Assembly: GCA_001790445.1 (NCBI GenBank)
Contig: MGCQ01000001.1
Span: 104,462 to 168,461, forward strand
DNA from: Candidatus Saccharibacteria bacterium RIFCSPHIGHO2_12_FULL_41_12
Lineage (GTDB): Bacteria > Patescibacteriota > Saccharimonadia > Saccharimonadales > 2-12-FULL-41-12
DNA length: 64,000 nt
Reading direction: 5' to 3'
Below the pieces are notes generated by a model. It was not told where the DNA came from and did no database searches. It saw nothing but the letters and a program-made list of their open reading frames with translations. The translations under genes were made by a program, and so were the position numbers. Positions 21,106-55,564 of the stretch are shown here, piece after piece. The stretch's first letter is position 1. Each line of letters opens with the position of its first letter.

Positions 21106-21180
21106 TCCCGGGTAGCTCAATGGTGGAGCAAGAAGCTGTTAACTTCGAGGTTGTCGGTTCGAATCCGACCCCGGGAGCCA
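21106..21180 (+). tRNA. tRNA-Asn (GTT), CCA encoded
   Basis: 75 nt. Acceptor TCCCGGG/CCCGGGA, D stem GCTC/GAGC, anticodon loop CTGTTAA, T arm GTCGG-TTCGAAT-CCGAC, then G-CCA. Confidence 0.95.
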
Positions 21181-41336: not shown

Positions 41337-41426
41337 GGAGAGGTGTCCGAGTGGCTTAAGGAGCACGCTTGGAAAGCGTGTAAAGGGGCAACTCTTTCGC
41401 GGGTTCGAATCCCGCTCTCTCCGCCA
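41337..41426 (+). tRNA. tRNA-Ser (GGA), CCA encoded
   Basis: 90 nt, class II. Acceptor GGAGAGG/TCTCTCC, anticodon stem CACGC/GCGTG with loop TTGGAAA, long variable arm, T arm GCGGG-TTCGAAT-CCCGC. A TATAAT at 41322-27 sits just upstream. Confidence 0.95.
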
Positions 41427-44467: not shown

Positions 44468-44471
44468 ACTC

Positions 44472-44508
44472 GCTCCTCTTTGTAGGGTTGAACCTTGCAA
44501 AGAGGAGC
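44472..44508. terminator. Hairpin terminator between convergent genes
   Basis: 11-bp stem GCTCCTCTTTG / CAAAGAGGAGC. Confidence 0.65.
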
Positions 44509-44532
44509 CTTGCACAAAAATTTTGACTTAGC

Positions 44533-46041
44533 TTAGAGGCTAACTGTTTTTGTTATAACAGCTGTTGCGCCGTTAGCATCAGTTACGATCAATGTAGCGA
44601 TGTAATTGCCTAGTTTTTTATATTTGTGAGTGGGGGATACAGCCGTAGAAGTTCCGCCATCTCCGAAGTTCCAGCTATAAGTCAGATTCGTACCATCTAT
44701 ATCACTTGAAGTATTTGCAAAACTTACATTGCGATGTGAGCCAACAGTAAAGTTGAATCCAACCGTTGGATCGTCGTTAATACTGGAGACAGTCAGGCTA
44801 ACCGTGGCTGTGGCAGAACCCTCAGAATTAGAGACTGCATATGTAAAGCTATCACTGCCATTGTAGTTAGTGGCAGGGGTGTAGGTAAATGTGCCATCTG
44901 TAGAAACGGAAACTGTGCCATGTTGAGCTTGTGTCTGTAATGAGTAGGTGGCCACGCCTTCGACAGAGTCGTTTGTGGTGACACTACCGCTTAGCGCGCT
45001 GTCTTCACTGACTGAGAAATTGTCGGCAATGGCAACAGGCGGTTCAATTACAGGATTGACCGTAATATTTACGATAGCCTGGGAGCTAAAACCATCAGCA
45101 TCTGTCACGCTGTAAACAAAGCTATCGACGCCGTTGTAGTTGGCGGCAGGGGTGTAGGTGAATGAACCATTGCCTAGATTTTGCAAAGTTCCGTGATCAG
45201 CACCATCGACAACGTCAACTTGCCCAGGCAAAGGCTGGTCATCGCTATCATTGGCATATACGTTAATCTGGACTGAGCTGTCTTCATTAACAACCGCTTG
45301 GTCGTTCTGAAGAGTTGGAGCTACTGGATCGGGGACTACTGTTCCTAGAGTCATAGTAACTGTTGCTTCATTGCTAACACCTCCATACACATCAACTGCT
45401 CGATAAGTAAAGCTAACTGGGCCTCTATAACCAGGCTCAGGAGTATATGATGTATAGACTGACTGGCCTACGTTGACACTTCCGTGATCCGGCTGGGTTA
45501 CTACCTCGGCGAATAGGAAATCACCTTCGGGATCTGAGTCGTTTGCACGCAAATCAGGCGTTATAGTGTTTCCGCTATCAAGAGAATAGTCTGACAGACC
45601 ACTAAAATCATACTGATCATTATTAGCCGTGGGAGACTGATTAACATCGCGAACATTGAGATCCCTACTATAACTATCCGTCAATCCTACTTCGTCAGTA
45701 ACTGTTAACGTAGCCACGAAAACACCTGGAGTAAGATATACGTGCGTAATATCTCCAGCAGAAGAACTATAGCCTGTGCCGTCTCCAAAATCCCAAGTGT
45801 AATTTGTTATTTGATCCCCGCAGCCATCACTGTAATTAGTAAAATTTGCAGTCTGATTGGTCATAATCGTAGCGTCGGTCCAGAAGGAAGAATAAGGCAC
45901 ACCATCCGCACCGCATGTAGGGCCCCCAGCAGCACTTGCTTTATTAACACTTACAATACCTAGGACCGGCGTCATCGCCAGAAACAGAGCAAAAACCCCA
46001 AAAGTAAATTTTTTAATATTTGTTAACATTAGACCCTCCAT
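44533..46041 (-). CDS. Secreted surface protein with PKD domains flanking cadherin/Ig-like repeats
   Basis: 502 aa with a signal peptide. WDFGDG…H.Y appears at both ends (PKD), with repeated …DSF.Y.V.D..G.S… modules between. Confidence 0.7.
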   Translation of the reverse strand: MEGLMLTNIKKFTFGVFALFLAMTPVLGIVSVNKASAAGGPTCGADGVPYSSFWTDATIMTNQTANFTNYSDGCGDQITNYTWDFGDGTGYSSSAGDITHVYLTPGVFVATLTVTDEVGLTDSYSRDLNVRDVNQSPTANNDQYDFSGLSDYSLDSGNTITPDLRANDSDPEGDFLFAEVVTQPDHGSVNVGQSVYTSYTPEPGYRGPVSFTYRAVDVYGGVSNEATVTMTLGTVVPDPVAPTLQNDQAVVNEDSSVQINVYANDSDDQPLPGQVDVVDGADHGTLQNLGNGSFTYTPAANYNGVDSFVYSVTDADGFSSQAIVNITVNPVIEPPVAIADNFSVSEDSALSGSVTTNDSVEGVATYSLQTQAQHGTVSVSTDGTFTYTPATNYNGSDSFTYAVSNSEGSATATVSLTVSSINDDPTVGFNFTVGSHRNVSFANTSSDIDGTNLTYSWNFGDGGTSTAVSPTHKYKKLGNYIATLIVTDANGATAVITKTVSL

Positions 46042-46122
46042 TAATTTTAAACCATGGATTTATTAAACCACTTATTGCACGCAATAACAACCAGGCTTGA
46101 TTAGAACCCCTACACTGCCCAA

Positions 46123-46797
46123 TCAGTGTAGAAATCTAAATGGTAATGAATCTTGCTGAGCAACTCTTCCAGCCCTTAAAACATGAGGCGGTTTCTTTGT
46201 GGGAGGCTCGATGCCTACAATCCAATCCTTTTTAATACCACCGAATATTCCAACTTCTGCTACCTCAATTGTATCTTTATACCCAATTTGTTTGTCTGTG
46301 GCTTCAATAACCTTCGCCACTGGCAGCACTCGATCCATAGGAACATCAAGAGCCATAAGGTGCATGTGTGGCCAGATGCGTTTTTTTGCTAGGTACTCAT
46401 CGTAGGTTGCAGATAACCATACGGTGGCAACTCCGTAAGCTCTTTGCATATAAACAGACTGCATTCTGTCAACTTTAGGTACAAAACAGCCTGGCAAATC
46501 AGGACTTTCATCATCTAATGGCTCAATCTTTTTCCTATAGAAATCAAATGGATCCTTTGAATACCAATCAGGTAACTTTACTGTGTTTGACAATGTCGCT
46601 ATACTAGCAACGCTCAAATTACCGATATCTATCCCCCTAAAGGCTGTTGCTAGCTGTGGAACATCAATATTTAAGGATCTTCTATACAAGCGTATGTTGT
46701 CACCGTTAATTTCTATCTCTGAATTACCTTCAAAGTAAGGTCGATACTCGCGTCCGCCAGCTTCGATATATTGAGCAAATGTATTAAAATAAGACAT
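46123..46797 (-). CDS. Hypothetical protein
   Basis: 224-aa ORF with no recognisable motif. Confidence 0.5.
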   Translation of the reverse strand: MSYFNTFAQYIEAGGREYRPYFEGNSEIEINGDNIRLYRRSLNIDVPQLATAFRGIDIGNLSVASIATLSNTVKLPDWYSKDPFDFYRKKIEPLDDESPDLPGCFVPKVDRMQSVYMQRAYGVATVWLSATYDEYLAKKRIWPHMHLMALDVPMDRVLPVAKVIEATDKQIGYKDTIEVAEVGIFGGIKKDWIVGIEPPTKKPPHVLRAGRVAQQDSLPFRFLH

Positions 46798-46873
46798 AAT
46801 CTTAAATATTATACAACTATATTTTGTATGTAGCTATTTTGTTTTATTGAAAAAACAACATAATATTAAACCT

Positions 46874-47250
46874 GTTGCGATTAAAGCCCTCTGGGCTTTT
46901 AATCACCATACTTTCTTGTGCTAACAAGAAAGTATGCAAAGAAATAGCAGGCGGTTGAACAAACTTGATGGGACTATCGGTCAAGGATCACAACAGACTG
47001 CGGAACTCTCTCCCTTTGGTCGTTCAAACAGTCCTCGCCTGATAGTTGTGATCTTGACGTAGTCTCTCAGGTTTGTTCAAGGCCTGACCAACAATCTGTA
47101 TATTTTCGTAGAAAATATTATTAATTATGACTTTAGACTATTTCATGCCAGGCCCTTGAATAACTGATGAAATATCTATTCAAGCAACGCCATGTTTTGA
47201 GGACCAGGGCTTGTCCCCGACTGGAAGGAGTCCCGGAAAAACTGGGTTGG
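46874..47250 (+). ncRNA. Candidate large structured RNA, copy 1 (unassigned class). The 3' boundary is uncertain
   Basis: No credible ORF. It is homologous in blocks to the reverse complement of 55172-55564, with compensatory changes in at least four helices (see findings). Confidence 0.6.
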
Positions 47251-47377
47251 TTGGAGAGATATTTCAATCATGTTAGTTCAATAGCCTGTCGTTTTTTGGG
47301 TTCCGTTTTTGTCGACACAAAAATGGAACAAAATACGGCTTGTGTGCAAGCCTGCTGGAAGTTGTTATACTTATGAT

Positions 47378-48777: not shown

Positions 48778-49932
48778 ATGACAGAAGCAACACAAGACAG
48801 AATAAGAGATACGGGCTACAAAGATCACTTTCAGCCTGAATATCCTAATGTTGCAGAGCTGGAAGAGGTAACCCGCAAGTTGAGAGATATGACTGGAATC
48901 GCTACTCCTGAGGAAATACTGACAACCAAACAGCAATATGCCGGCGTAGCAACTGGCGCAAACGGTAGCTGGATTTTGGTAACTGGACCATGTAGTGAGC
49001 CAATATCACTACAGCAACCAGAGACTACATTTGTTGAACGATATACCAGACTCCTGCAGATAGGCAAAGCTTCAAGCCCTACAAGTCCGCCACTTCATGC
49101 TTTGCGGGCTTGTGGACAGAACGCAAAACCAAGAAGTGCCGAGTGTGAGATGTTGCCGGATGGTTCAATTGTACCTTCTTACTACGGAGATTTGATTAAT
49201 GGCATTGACCCCAGCGACCGTACACCAGACCCCACGCGCATGGTTGCAGGCGCTTTGCAGGCACGAGATGTCAATCGTGCGCTAAGAGATAATGGTCAAC
49301 AATTCGTATCTACTCATGAGGCTCTGCTTCTTCCGTATGAAGAGAGCTTTATCGTCCAAGGCGCACAAGGGCGAGAATTCTTAACTTCATGTACCGTGCC
49401 ATGGATTGGCAAGCGCACTAATGAACCAGATGGTATTCATGTTGATATGTTAAAAGATATAGAAAACCCAATCGGCATAAAGATCGGCCCTGGAGACAAA
49501 CCAGAAAAAATCGCAGAACTTACCCAAAAGCTAAACCCGAGTTGTGAGCCTGGCAAACTTTTGTATATTTTGCGATTTGGTGTTGGCAACTTATACCAAG
49601 CACCAGAAATATTGCAATCCATAAAAGATCACTCAAAAGGTGCGCTGATTCTTTGTGATCCAATGCATGGTAACACAGTCAAAACCCTCGACGGACGAAA
49701 AACGCGTGAAGTCCCGAGGATAATAGATGAGATCAAAGCCATTAGTAAAATGTGCCAGGAACTAGGTTTACGCTTGCATGGTCTCCACCTAGAGGCCAGC
49801 GGTAGAGATGACAGGGTAGAATGTGTGGACTCAGTCGGTCAAAGCCCAGACCACACCGCCGTAGTCGATCCAGAACTCAATAATAACCAACTTGCAGGAG
49901 TACTAGAAGAAACCGGGGAGTGTTTCGTCTGA
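48778..49932 (+). CDS. Class II 3-deoxy-7-phosphoheptulonate (DAHP) synthase-like enzyme, short form
   Basis: 384 aa. GQNAKPRS, STHEALLLPYE, WIGKRTNEPDGIHV, NP.G.K.GP, CDPMHGNT and LHLEASG follow the AroA(II) motif order. Confidence 0.75.
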   Translation: MTEATQDRIRDTGYKDHFQPEYPNVAELEEVTRKLRDMTGIATPEEILTTKQQYAGVATGANGSWILVTGPCSEPISLQQPETTFVERYTRLLQIGKASSPTSPPLHALRACGQNAKPRSAECEMLPDGSIVPSYYGDLINGIDPSDRTPDPTRMVAGALQARDVNRALRDNGQQFVSTHEALLLPYEESFIVQGAQGREFLTSCTVPWIGKRTNEPDGIHVDMLKDIENPIGIKIGPGDKPEKIAELTQKLNPSCEPGKLLYILRFGVGNLYQAPEILQSIKDHSKGALILCDPMHGNTVKTLDGRKTREVPRIIDEIKAISKMCQELGLRLHGLHLEASGRDDRVECVDSVGQSPDHTAVVDPELNNNQLAGVLEETGECFV

Positions 49933-53321: not shown

Positions 53322-53406
53322 TGGTGCCGGAGGAGGGACTCGAACCCTCAAGCCTTGCGGCATGCGATTTTGAGTCGCACGCGTATACCAATTCCGCCAC
53401 TCCGGC
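53322..53406 (-). tRNA. tRNA-Leu (CAA), CCA encoded
   Basis: 85 nt on the minus strand. Acceptor GCCGGAG/CTCCGGC, anticodon stem TGCGA/TCGCA with loop CTCAAAA, long variable arm, T arm GAGGG-TTCGAGT-CCCTC, then A-CCA. Confidence 0.95.
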
Positions 53407-53409
53407 ATT

Positions 53410-53658
53410 TTATCTATTATACACTAAGGATTTTAAGAATTCTTTACCTACACCTGATTTTAAATACTTTTCACGTTTGCGTGCTTCTAGCCCTGTCCCG
53501 CACATCTCGCTGTACACAAGCCTGAGAGGAGCATAAGCTTTTGTTGAACGACTCTTACCCTCATTATGTTGCTGAATTCTTCTTTTTAGATTACTGGTCA
53601 TCCCCACATAAATGTAGTTTTTTGATTCACTTTGTAGGGCATAGACATAATAATTCAT
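53410..53658 (-). CDS. GIY-YIG nuclease family protein (UPF0213-like, 82 aa)
   Basis: YVYAL…IYVGMTSNLKRRIQQHNEG…E…REKYLK motifs. The stop codon ends 3 nt before the mature 5' end of tRNA-Leu. Confidence 0.85.
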   Translation of the reverse strand: MNYYVYALQSESKNYIYVGMTSNLKRRIQQHNEGKSRSTKAYAPLRLVYSEMCGTGLEARKREKYLKSGVGKEFLKSLVYNR

Positions 53659-55036: not shown

Positions 55037-55072
55037 AGAATAATAAACTTCTATAATGAACTGCATTTCGCC

Positions 55073-55093
55073 AAGCCCTAAATAGGGCTTTTG
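55073..55093 (+). terminator. Rho-independent terminator of the sortase gene
   Basis: AAGCCC-TAAATA-GGGCTT followed by TTTG. Confidence 0.65.
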
Positions 55094-55171
55094 TCGACCT
55101 ACTTTTTCTCTATAGCAAGAAAAAAGTAAGCAAAAAGTGCCACCCCAGTTTAAAAACAATTACCCTAGCTT

Positions 55172-55564
55172 ATTACAACTACAAACAGACTACTCTTCCG
55201 GGACTCCTTCCAGTCGGGGACAAGCCCTGGTCCTCAGATTAATCTGTTTGTAGTTGCAATAACCAAAGGTGTTTTTAAAAGGGGACCAAAAGCAGTCTAA
55301 AGTCATTATTAATAATATTTCCTACGGAAATATACAGATTGTTGGTCAGGCCCTTTGAAAAACAGATGAGACGAACAAACCAAAAGCTCCTTGTTTTGAG
55401 GACTAGGTCTCCCAGACCCGACCAAAGGAAGTCCCGGAGAAACAGGGCTTTTGTTTTGTTTGGATCAATATGTATTTTTCAAACAGCCTGCTATTTCTTT
55501 GCATACTTTCTTGTTGGCACAAGAAAGTATGGTGATTGAAAGCCTGGAAGGCTTTAAGCGCAAC
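55172..55564 (-). ncRNA. Candidate large structured RNA, copy 2 (inverted relative to copy 1)
   Basis: The reverse complement aligns block-wise with 46874-47250. The 41-nt block at 55194-55234 is identical, and helices are maintained by compensatory substitutions. Confidence 0.6.

Follow-up and report, generated by a model that had tools for sequence, protein, structure and literature searches.

Two kinds of short non-coding bacterial repeat are closest in behaviour to the element described here. The mosaics of repetitive extragenic palindromes (REPs) in Proteobacteria, namely bacterial interspersed mosaic elements (BIMEs) and REPINs, are intergenic, combine imperfect hairpin modules of alternating orientation with other short motifs, and vary in presence among strains. 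BIME and REP elements often lie between convergent genes, where they are able to end or stabilise transcripts. Foldback miniature inverted-repeat transposable elements (MITEs), such as Correia/NEMIS, ERIC, the Rickettsia palindromic elements and bcr1, are small stable palindromes between genes with filled and empty sites, and they can carry terminator or promoter activity, as we propose for the present element. Here we analyzed a 64,000-nucleotide stretch (hereafter, the window) of contig MGCQ01000001.1 from Candidatus Saccharibacteria bacterium RIFCSPHIGHO2_12_FULL_41_12, in which an initial annotation had proposed a large structured RNA of ~377 nt in two inverted copies. We conclude with moderate confidence that this feature is most of a ~480-500-bp nested-palindromic intergenic repeat, which belongs to a family dispersed in Saccharibacteria and in which the hairpins would serve as transcript-end modules. 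That the feature is a palindromic repeat of two units, not a single RNA, is much firmer than any mechanism at the RNA level. Searches of Rfam 15 and of the literature found no description of such a repeat or non-coding RNA family in Saccharibacteria or other bacteria of the Candidate Phyla Radiation (CPR).

Architecture of the two copies

When copy 1 (46874-47238, + strand) was compared with copy 2 (55564-55196, - strand) using BLASTN, the two were 71% identical (E = 2e-42), confirming that the inverted recurrence of ~377 nt is real and not due to chance. A MAFFT alignment of both copies (A1) showed that conservation is arranged in blocks, as first described. The 41-nt block that is identical in both copies occurred exactly twice without mismatch in the window (0.00 expected), and the first 25 nt of block C also occurred exactly twice. 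Further, both copies folded more stably than their dinucleotide shuffles (z = -5.6 for copy 1 and -7.1 for copy 2). The absence of a credible open reading frame (ORF) from the gap around copy 1 stands, because the 69-aa ORF found at 47167-47376 has no counterpart in copy 2.

Homologues were obtained by searching a metagenome collection with a degenerate pattern for the 41-nt block. Approximately 20 of the matches listed were real and lay in low-GC contigs from Hainich groundwater, Rifle and lakes, whereas ~85% of the 111 loci listed (L numbers) were chance matches in high-GC genes, for example in EF-hand-like repeats. The 3' tails of both copies are common to metagenomic homologues, and the 3' end first assigned was thus too short. 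The full copy 1 is 479 bp (46874-47352, +), as defined by homology to copy 2 and to the tails of L057, L065, L047 and L101. The full copy 2 is 498 bp (55564-55067, -), and L115, L083 and L031 are 75-78% identical to it over about 500 nt.

Each full element is an imperfect palindrome along its whole length: it matched its reverse complement at 70-81% identity across 305-524 aligned nt (70% for copy 1 and 79% for copy 2), with self-versus-reverse-complement scores of 55-125 compared with 10-17 +/- 4 for the shuffled null. On the strand read in the initial annotation (+ for copy 1 and - for copy 2; hereafter, the reading strand), the order is TTGCG, hairpin A, hairpin B, an A-rich junction (J), long hairpin H1, a centre (C) that contains a small hairpin, the second long hairpin (H2), a U-rich tract, hairpins B' and A' and then (CGCAA). 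L083 and L031 have the termini TTGCG...CGCAA, which in the window copies are degenerate. As seen in L069, L083 and L031, the A/B hairpins of the 5' end recur in inverted form as B'/A' at the 3' end. The 41-nt block, which belongs to a motif termed D, forms the apex of H2, and H1 is capped by a D-type motif of the opposite strand. The full element is composed of two directional units of ~230-250 nt that diverge from the AT-rich centre; unit 2 lies on the reading strand and unit 1 on the other. Within the 377 nt first noted, the tail and the hairpin of unit 1 are read in reverse, and the centre and the unit-2 hairpin follow.

In its own-strand reading, a unit consists of a 140-165-nt irregular hairpin closed by CAGGC/GCCUG with D at its apex, followed by a U-rich tract, hairpin B and hairpin A. 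D is an asymmetric apex motif of ~45 nt with two forms: D1, GAGGAC-YAG-(3-5-bp minihairpin with loop UUUA)-CGACUGRAAGGAGUYCCG, and D2, GAGGACUGUUUGA-(insert)-AGUUCCGCAG. When hairpins from different positions and strands were turned D-sense, eight aligned over ~165 nt (alignment A4) with the layout CCAGGC-YCUUUGAAAAAC-AGAUGA, a variable stem, GUUUU, D, AAAAC, a variable stem and UCAAUAUG-UUUUUCAAAC-AGCCUG. The order of the tail in D-sense was the same in every unit: the U-rich tract (UUGUUUCUUUG, UCGUUUUUUG or CACUUUUUG), then B and then A. Hairpin B has 12-13 bp, a pyrimidine-rich 5' arm and three sequence types, and hairpin A is GC-cored and terminator-like, enclosed by GUGAUU/AAUCGC. A covariance model of D (R1) matched the window exactly four times, once on each strand of each element, and gave no match over ~85 kb of sequence from close relatives.

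The U-rich tract behind each D hairpin (UUUCUUUG) was also observed to resemble the 5' arm of hairpin B, as at 46937-46947 compared with 46924-46936 (- strand; alignment A5). An alternative pairing of this tract with the 3' arm of hairpin B (AAGAAAG) is predicted, and might constitute a structural switch.

In copy 1, hairpin A of unit 1 (46877-46906, -), assigned from the sequence and its homologues, has an outer helix GCGATT/AATCAC and an inner helix AAAGCCC-TCT-GGGCTTT and is terminator-like in both directions. Its stems vary among homologues with the pairing kept (AAAGCCT, AAACCCT, ACTGCCC and others). Hairpin B of unit 1, CATACTTTCTTGT-GCTA-ACAAGAAAGTATG (46907-46936, -), has exactly two matches in the window and is kept in all full homologues, with covariation of the closing pair in L069 (GATAC...GTATC). 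Junction J, CAAAGAAATAG (46937-46947, -), is on the - strand the U-rich tract that follows the unit-1 hairpin. H1 (CAGGC...GCCTG; 46948-47086, -) was assigned by folding and by model R1, and bears a D2-type apex in sense on the - strand (match 46987-47050, core 47001-47036, 18.3 bits, E = 0.005). The long stem opened by CAGGC had been recognised before and is present, with CAGGC at 46948-46952, one base from its earlier position. The units diverge in the AT-rich, unstranded centre C (47087-47148), which includes the hairpin ATATTTTC-GTA-GAAAATAT (47100-47118) and -10-like hexamers. Promoter-like sites lie on the - strand at 47151-47117, and on these sequence features the centre is a putative promoter region. 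H2, the unit-2 hairpin (CAGGC...GCCTG; 47149-47288, +), holds the 41-nt block within a D1 apex in sense (R1 match 47185-47249, core 47199-47235, 74.3 bits), and aligned with seven homologous hairpins in A4. The tract TTTTTT (47292-47297, +) directly follows H2, and an equivalent tract lies behind every D1-type hairpin. The unit-2 tail (47298-47352, +), which is common to L057, L047, L061 and L101, contains two hairpins: B', GTTCCGTTTTTGT-CGAC-ACAAAAATGGAAC (47300-47329), and A', GGCTTG-TGTG-CAAGCC (47337-47352), the second of which was identified as terminator-like on the - strand.

In copy 2, hairpins A (55561-55532) and B (55531-55502) and junction J form the unit-1 tail (55491-55561, +). 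H1 (55347-55490, +) has a D1-type apex in sense on the + strand (55384-55450; R1, 63.8 bits; included in A4). The unstranded centre C (55295-55346) contains the hairpin ATATTTCC-GTA-GGAAATAT (55333-55315). H2 of unit 2 (55137-55294, -) has a D1 apex in sense on the - strand (55185-55249; R1, 71 bits), and its alignment (A3) exhibited both-sided changes in 12/54 pairs and many G.U pairs. The U tract (55136-55132), hairpin B' (55130-55098) and hairpin A' (55090-55073) complete the unit (55067-55136, -). Hairpin A', AAGCCC-TATTTA-GGGCTT, is followed on the + strand by TTTTG, faces the sortase gene and is terminator-like.

Covariation and strand bias of the D hairpin

The earlier view of the feature as structured, non-coding and under selection on its structure was borne out: the folds were more stable than those of shuffles, and covariation became clear once homologues were added. 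In D and its closing stem (17 sequences), 98.3% of cells were paired and both sides had changed in 8/14 pairs. The covariation score was 0.50 compared with 0.19 for shuffles, none of which (0/500) reached the observed value, and slid controls gave 28-55% pairing. The minihairpin took the forms GGC/GCC, GUC/GAC, GCC/GGC, GGUC/GACC and GCCC/GGGC around a constant UUUA loop, and the adjacent Y-R pair was C-G, U-A or U.G and never C-A. Note that the minihairpin and Y-R positions were free in the search pattern and hence were not selected by the search. Across the whole D hairpin (8 sequences), 94.4% of cells were paired and 20/49 pairs had changed on both sides (slid controls, 34-60%). Further, the unpaired bases of D were invariant between the covarying helices.

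Four differences between the window copies had been interpreted as compensatory, and all four are present in the sequence. Two are genuine: AAAGCCC/GGGCTTT versus AAAGCCT/AGGCTTT, and TATTTTC/GAAAATA versus TATTTCC/GGAAATA, with more stem variants in homologues. The other two, at the base of the CAGGC...GCCTG long stem and in the stem closing the 41-nt block, are whole-module swaps. They are not stepwise double substitutions, because non-orthologous hairpin modules are compared and the two arms of each travel together.

For the strand comparison, the D core was removed and the flanking stems were folded in both orientations. The stems were more stable in D-sense in 19/23 hairpins, including 17/17 of the D1 type (about 8 independent groups), and G.U counts in these folds also favoured the D-sense strand (62 versus 26). 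The bias held even where the D-sense strand is the strand opposite A and B. Unit-2 arms folded at -97.5 versus -76.7 kcal/mol in copy 2 and at -83.6 versus -76.7 kcal/mol in copy 1 (D-sense versus other strand). In hairpin A, the outer helix had U.G on the D-sense strand in 8/12 sequences, which corresponds to a C.A mismatch on the other strand; the MAFFT/RNAalifold alignment of unit tails is poorly registered across B-hairpin types and was used for this helix only. The 5' hairpins, which had been assigned to the same RNA as the rest, thus belong to the opposite-strand unit, since the C.A mismatch falls on the reading strand.

RNA or single-stranded DNA predicts such strand asymmetries, whereas a function in duplex DNA only does not. 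We therefore consider D and its stems to be under strand-specific structural constraint, which points to a single-stranded structure on both strands, probably RNA. Covariation and strand-specific G.U pairing are shared with structured RNAs in general, with the caveats that the sequences compared are related and that single-stranded DNA is also compatible with these features.

The suspicion that the feature matches no known RNA class was also upheld. At E <= 10 neither copy matched a family of Rfam 15, at the gathering threshold or below it, and the only scores were noise (10.8-23.5 bits against thresholds of 40-127); the classes covered include 6S, SRP, RNase P, tmRNA, group I/II introns, ribozymes and riboswitches. 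Rfam searches over 19 homologous loci detected rRNA and tRNA only. The ornate RNAs of Rfam (ROOL, GOLLD, OLE, HEARO/omega RNA and raiA) resemble the element in size range, block conservation, covarying helices and patchy distribution. Unlike them, it has no covariance-model match at E <= 10, has a palindromic two-strand design, and is without neighbouring IscB or TnpB or a phage context. D was also compared by eye with SRP helix 8, the sarcin-ricin loop, kink-turns, CsrA sites and Shine-Dalgarno mimics; these were rejected, as the defining positions misfit and there was no Rfam score.

Homologues, insertion sites and turnover

Among the homologues, the relatives of copy 1 are L057 and L065. 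In L081 and L030, the 5' two-thirds are shared and the 3' hairpin module differs, and L069 (52% GC) is a divergent full element. Single units occur at L047, L061, L099 and L101. L047 and L061 have the unit and all of the sequence downstream in common and diverge immediately upstream of the hairpin base. L099 is from a Saccharibacterium, as its PrfB is 89% identical to a named Saccharibacteria protein. No homologue of any protein flanking the window copies was found at the homologous loci. Their neighbours were genes for a PilB-type ATPase/rplS, truB, an ABC transporter/beta-lactamase-like gene, a YtxH-like gene, prfB and parB, and the flanks were unrelated at at least eight metagenomic loci. 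In L030 (4195-4352) and L081 (1912-2070), another conserved long hairpin (apex ...GGAGAGTATAAGCGGAGTGCAGACCGAGAAGATATCTTCTCGG...CGAAACGCTCTC...) was observed in place of the second D-hairpin unit; its fold is better on the opposite strand, and it has no Rfam match.

The D2-type motif (GAGGACUGUUUGA...GAGUUCCGCAG) caps a ~170-nt hairpin on at least seven contigs of a Bacteroidales bacterium (L024, L035, L040, L064, L079, L100 and L112; for example, L112 4070-4600 and L079 8437-8856), which was assigned by its FtsH (90% identical to Bacteroidales proteins). The tandem-repeat array next to each of these hairpins is a different one (periods of 14, 19, 25, 32 and 113 nt). The same D2 core is present in H1 of copy 1 and in L057, L069 and L127. 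One of the Bacteroidales copies follows a 5S rRNA gene at a distance of ~240 nt.

BLASTN in distant mode with copy 1 and the Bacteroidales D2 hairpin as queries gave no match in phage and plasmid collections, and exact 20-21-mers from three conserved blocks gave none in IMG/VR. Two IMG/VR matches to the degenerate D pattern were rejected as chance matches in high-GC actinophage coding sequence, and the one match listed for a 22-mer from block D in genome contigs was likewise due to chance, in high-GC coding sequence.

Copy 1 lies between the starts of two divergent genes, which encode a 224-aa protein (-) and a HAD hydrolase (+). Copy 2 lies between the stop codons of two convergent genes, which encode a PEGA-domain protein (-) and a sortase (+), and occupies nearly all of the 566-nt gap between these stops. 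The flanking 224-aa and 161-aa proteins gave no informative domain, and no transposase, reverse transcriptase, IscB/TnpB or recombinase was found among the genes within 10 kb of either copy. In the relatives L008, L011 and L012 (GltX 78-82% identical), the gene order is the same and the sortase and PEGA stops are 1-7 nt apart. The empty junction in L008 is TGA-C-CTA, and both protein C-termini match those of the window. Comparison of this empty site with the filled site places the insertion exactly between the two stop codons, with no recognisable direct repeat or target-site duplication. Further, L011 lacks the whole 44468-47377 segment, that is, two genes and copy 1. Thus, both copies lie in DNA that close relatives lack. 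The two genes of this segment encode a 502-aa surface protein (Big_9/cadherin-like/PKD) and the 224-aa protein without a domain match. In L011, the exonuclease/phosphatase gene runs straight into the HAD gene with a 4-nt overlap.

Genomes of Saccharibacteria and other CPR bacteria are ~1 Mb, and neighbouring genes often abut. A 500-bp non-coding palindromic insertion is conspicuous for this reason.

The family is also rearranged internally. In L057 and L065, the inner ~370 nt (H1, centre and H2) are inverted relative to copy 1 (BLAST minus-strand match, 75%), and the outer ends have the same orientation. H2 of copy 1 is the reverse complement of H1 of L057 and L065, including the flanks CAACGCCAUGUUUU...AAAACUGGGUUG, and H1 of copy 1 with its D2 apex is the reverse complement of H2 of L057. 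In this respect, the element is like invertons, in which an internal segment is bounded by inverted repeats and both orientations are present among homologues. Unlike invertons, it was inverted between species only: three assemblies of the window's own population (L002, L005 and L006) are 100% identical in the element, and no recombinase or invertase lies nearby. Flipping the inner segment changes little, because the segment itself is nearly palindromic.

Orthologous copies were also sought by synteny, using the GltX and PrfB neighbours; the spacers were empty or unalignable, and no orthologues were found. In the spacer downstream of prfB in four related Saccharibacteria, one had a D1 unit antisense to prfB (L099 1857-1922), one had a D2-type motif on the other strand (L127 11399-11463) and two had neither; these spacers could not be aligned. 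Three other assemblies of the window's population end or turn chimeric inside the long hairpins (L003 at its start, L004 at 1-185 and L007 at its end). The divergent first 185 nt of L004 were considered as a third variant and rejected, being a high-GC chimeric join inside block D. The family is quickly gained, lost, inverted and reshuffled, and therefore behaves as selfish or mobile DNA. Since it is absent at the sites of close relatives and stands in unrelated contexts elsewhere, this is the behaviour of a dispersed repeat and not of a housekeeping RNA gene.

Three further observations concern the surroundings. Three tRNA genes (21106-21177, 41337-41423 and 53325-53406) are the sole Rfam matches across the window. 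An 82-aa ORF with a GIY-YIG nuclease domain (53410-53658, -; domain annotated on L006) adjoins the last of these (-) and may be a homing-endonuclease remnant. At 48778-49932, a gene for a class-II 3-deoxy-D-arabino-heptulosonate 7-phosphate (DAHP) synthase was detected (PF01474, E = 6e-74); Saccharibacteria are generally described as lacking amino-acid biosynthesis, and the gene is hence unexpected.

A proposed transcript-end cassette and competing explanations

In the reading that we favour, the hairpins of both strands would function in single-stranded form, most likely as RNA. A transcript of either strand would meet the antisense hairpin first and then the D-sense hairpin with its U tract, and the terminator-like A hairpins would bracket the whole element. 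Because of this arrangement, transcripts that arrive from either side could be ended or stabilised, and the element would serve between genes as a symmetric transcript-end cassette (a terminator or stabiliser). This would matter at the site of copy 2, where the convergent genes abut in element-free relatives, and D would be a probable docking site for a putative factor. Intrinsic terminators, including bidirectional ones, are similar in that a GC-closed hairpin is followed by a U-rich tract, that hairpin A is flanked by an A tract and a U tract, and that the element at copy 2 is symmetric between convergent genes. Unlike such terminators, the hairpins are 140-165 nt long, both their internal loops and their elaborate apex are conserved, interruptions occur in the U tracts, and copy 1 lies between divergent promoters.

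Several points weigh against this reading. A consensus terminator scan did not call the long hairpins, the stems and loops of which exceed its limits and the U tracts of which are interrupted; its only call was hairpin A' of copy 1 (- strand), with none in copy 2. A terminator cassette also has no evident purpose between the starts of divergent genes, which is the position of copy 1. In the window copies, a clear strand bias was present in the unit-2 arms only, the unit-1 arms being neutral, and D2-type hairpins exhibited no consistent bias. Further, G.T wobbles are tolerated in DNA hairpins too, so that single-stranded DNA is also compatible with the asymmetry. The shuffle statistics overstate significance because many of the compared hairpins are related (~8 independent groups), and template switching can homogenise the arms of a palindrome, mimicking compensatory change. 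The invariance of GAGGAC, CGAC and AGGAGUYCCG is partly an ascertainment effect, because these were fixed in the search pattern. Finally, no target-site duplication (L008 comparison), no transposase (within 10 kb) and no partner protein was identified.

More tentatively, the D-hairpin unit might be a new class of structured RNA or single-stranded-DNA recognition element, common to Saccharibacteria and Bacteroidales, with a dedicated partner protein and a means of propagation not yet described for bacterial repeats. Candidates for its spread are hairpin-apex-directed mobilisation and RNA-mediated copying like that of short interspersed nuclear elements (SINEs), and the palindromic doublet would be the replicating or functional form.

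We consider it rather unlikely that the element is an ordinary foldback MITE acting at the DNA level, with its arms as transposase-binding ends, the transposase elsewhere in the genome and the RNA structure incidental. It shares with MITEs a small, non-coding, AT-rich body with long inverted arms, terminal inverted repeats (TTGCG...CGCAA, as in L083 and L031), and multiple dispersed copies, two of them within 64 kb, that vary in presence among relatives; the filled and empty sites, the unrelated insertion contexts and the assemblies that break inside it fit as well. However, the best-conserved part is the internal apex D and not the termini, directional half-units occur alone without a second arm, and strand-specific pairing (G.U versus A.C) is not expected of a duplex-DNA site. 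Further, no target-site duplication could be identified in the L008 comparison, no transposase or parent insertion sequence was found within 10 kb of either copy, and the plasmid and phage collections gave no match.

A pair of divergent small-RNA genes, each producing a ~250-300-nt D-hairpin RNA (the hairpin, B and terminator A) with a dedicated partner and not being selfish DNA, is an unlikely explanation. It would account for a directional unit that ends in the terminator-like hairpin A, for conserved unpaired D bases between covarying helices, for the D-sense strand bias, for -10-like TATTAAT hexamers beside a conserved ACUGCUU leader in the AT-rich centre, and for the conservation of the D2 variant in a Bacteroidales genome. 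Against this, the family is wholly absent from close relatives, and its copy number and position vary. L047 and L061 diverge right upstream of the hairpin base, so that no promoter is conserved there, and no co-occurring protein was seen.

Much less probable is a REP/REPIN-like system, in which an HUH/Y1 enzyme (RAYT or IS200-type) would recognise the single-stranded DNA form of the D hairpin and inverted pairs would be what replicates. The imperfect hairpin with conserved asymmetric bulges, the inverted doublets, the mosaic with other motifs and the intergenic location are all as in such systems, and strand-specific pairing is compatible with G.T pairs in single-stranded DNA. However, the modules are 5-10 times longer than those of BIME, REP and REPIN elements, to which they have no sequence similarity: a 64-nt motif lies within a 140-165-nt hairpin, far longer than a REP (20-40 nt), and the two D motifs, although inverted, are ~200 nt apart. 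Further, the apex is conserved and not the stem, the host has a streamlined CPR genome, the ~30 kb annotated around the copies showed no Y1 or RAYT gene, and conserved U tracts with terminator-like hairpins fit RNA better.

The original proposal of a single ~380-nt trans-acting structured RNA gene (+ for copy 1 and - for copy 2), akin to the ornate large RNAs, is the most improbable of all: very stable folds, conserved blocks between variable helices, the lack of an Rfam match, the U tract behind the 3' hairpin and the strong preference of the copy 2 3' arm for that strand speak for it, but the element matches its own reverse complement at 70-81% identity and carries D on each strand, its 5' hairpins pair better on the opposite strand, its inner 370 nt are inverted in homologues, half-units occur alone, and it is absent at orthologous positions of close relatives, without synteny and in unrelated contexts elsewhere.

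Elements of this family break metagenome assemblies and invite spurious ORF calls. The D motif provides a searchable handle for the bounds of transcription units in CPR genomes and for mobile DNA that circulates among episymbionts. It is also a handle for a possible new RNA-protein or single-stranded-DNA-protein recognition pair.

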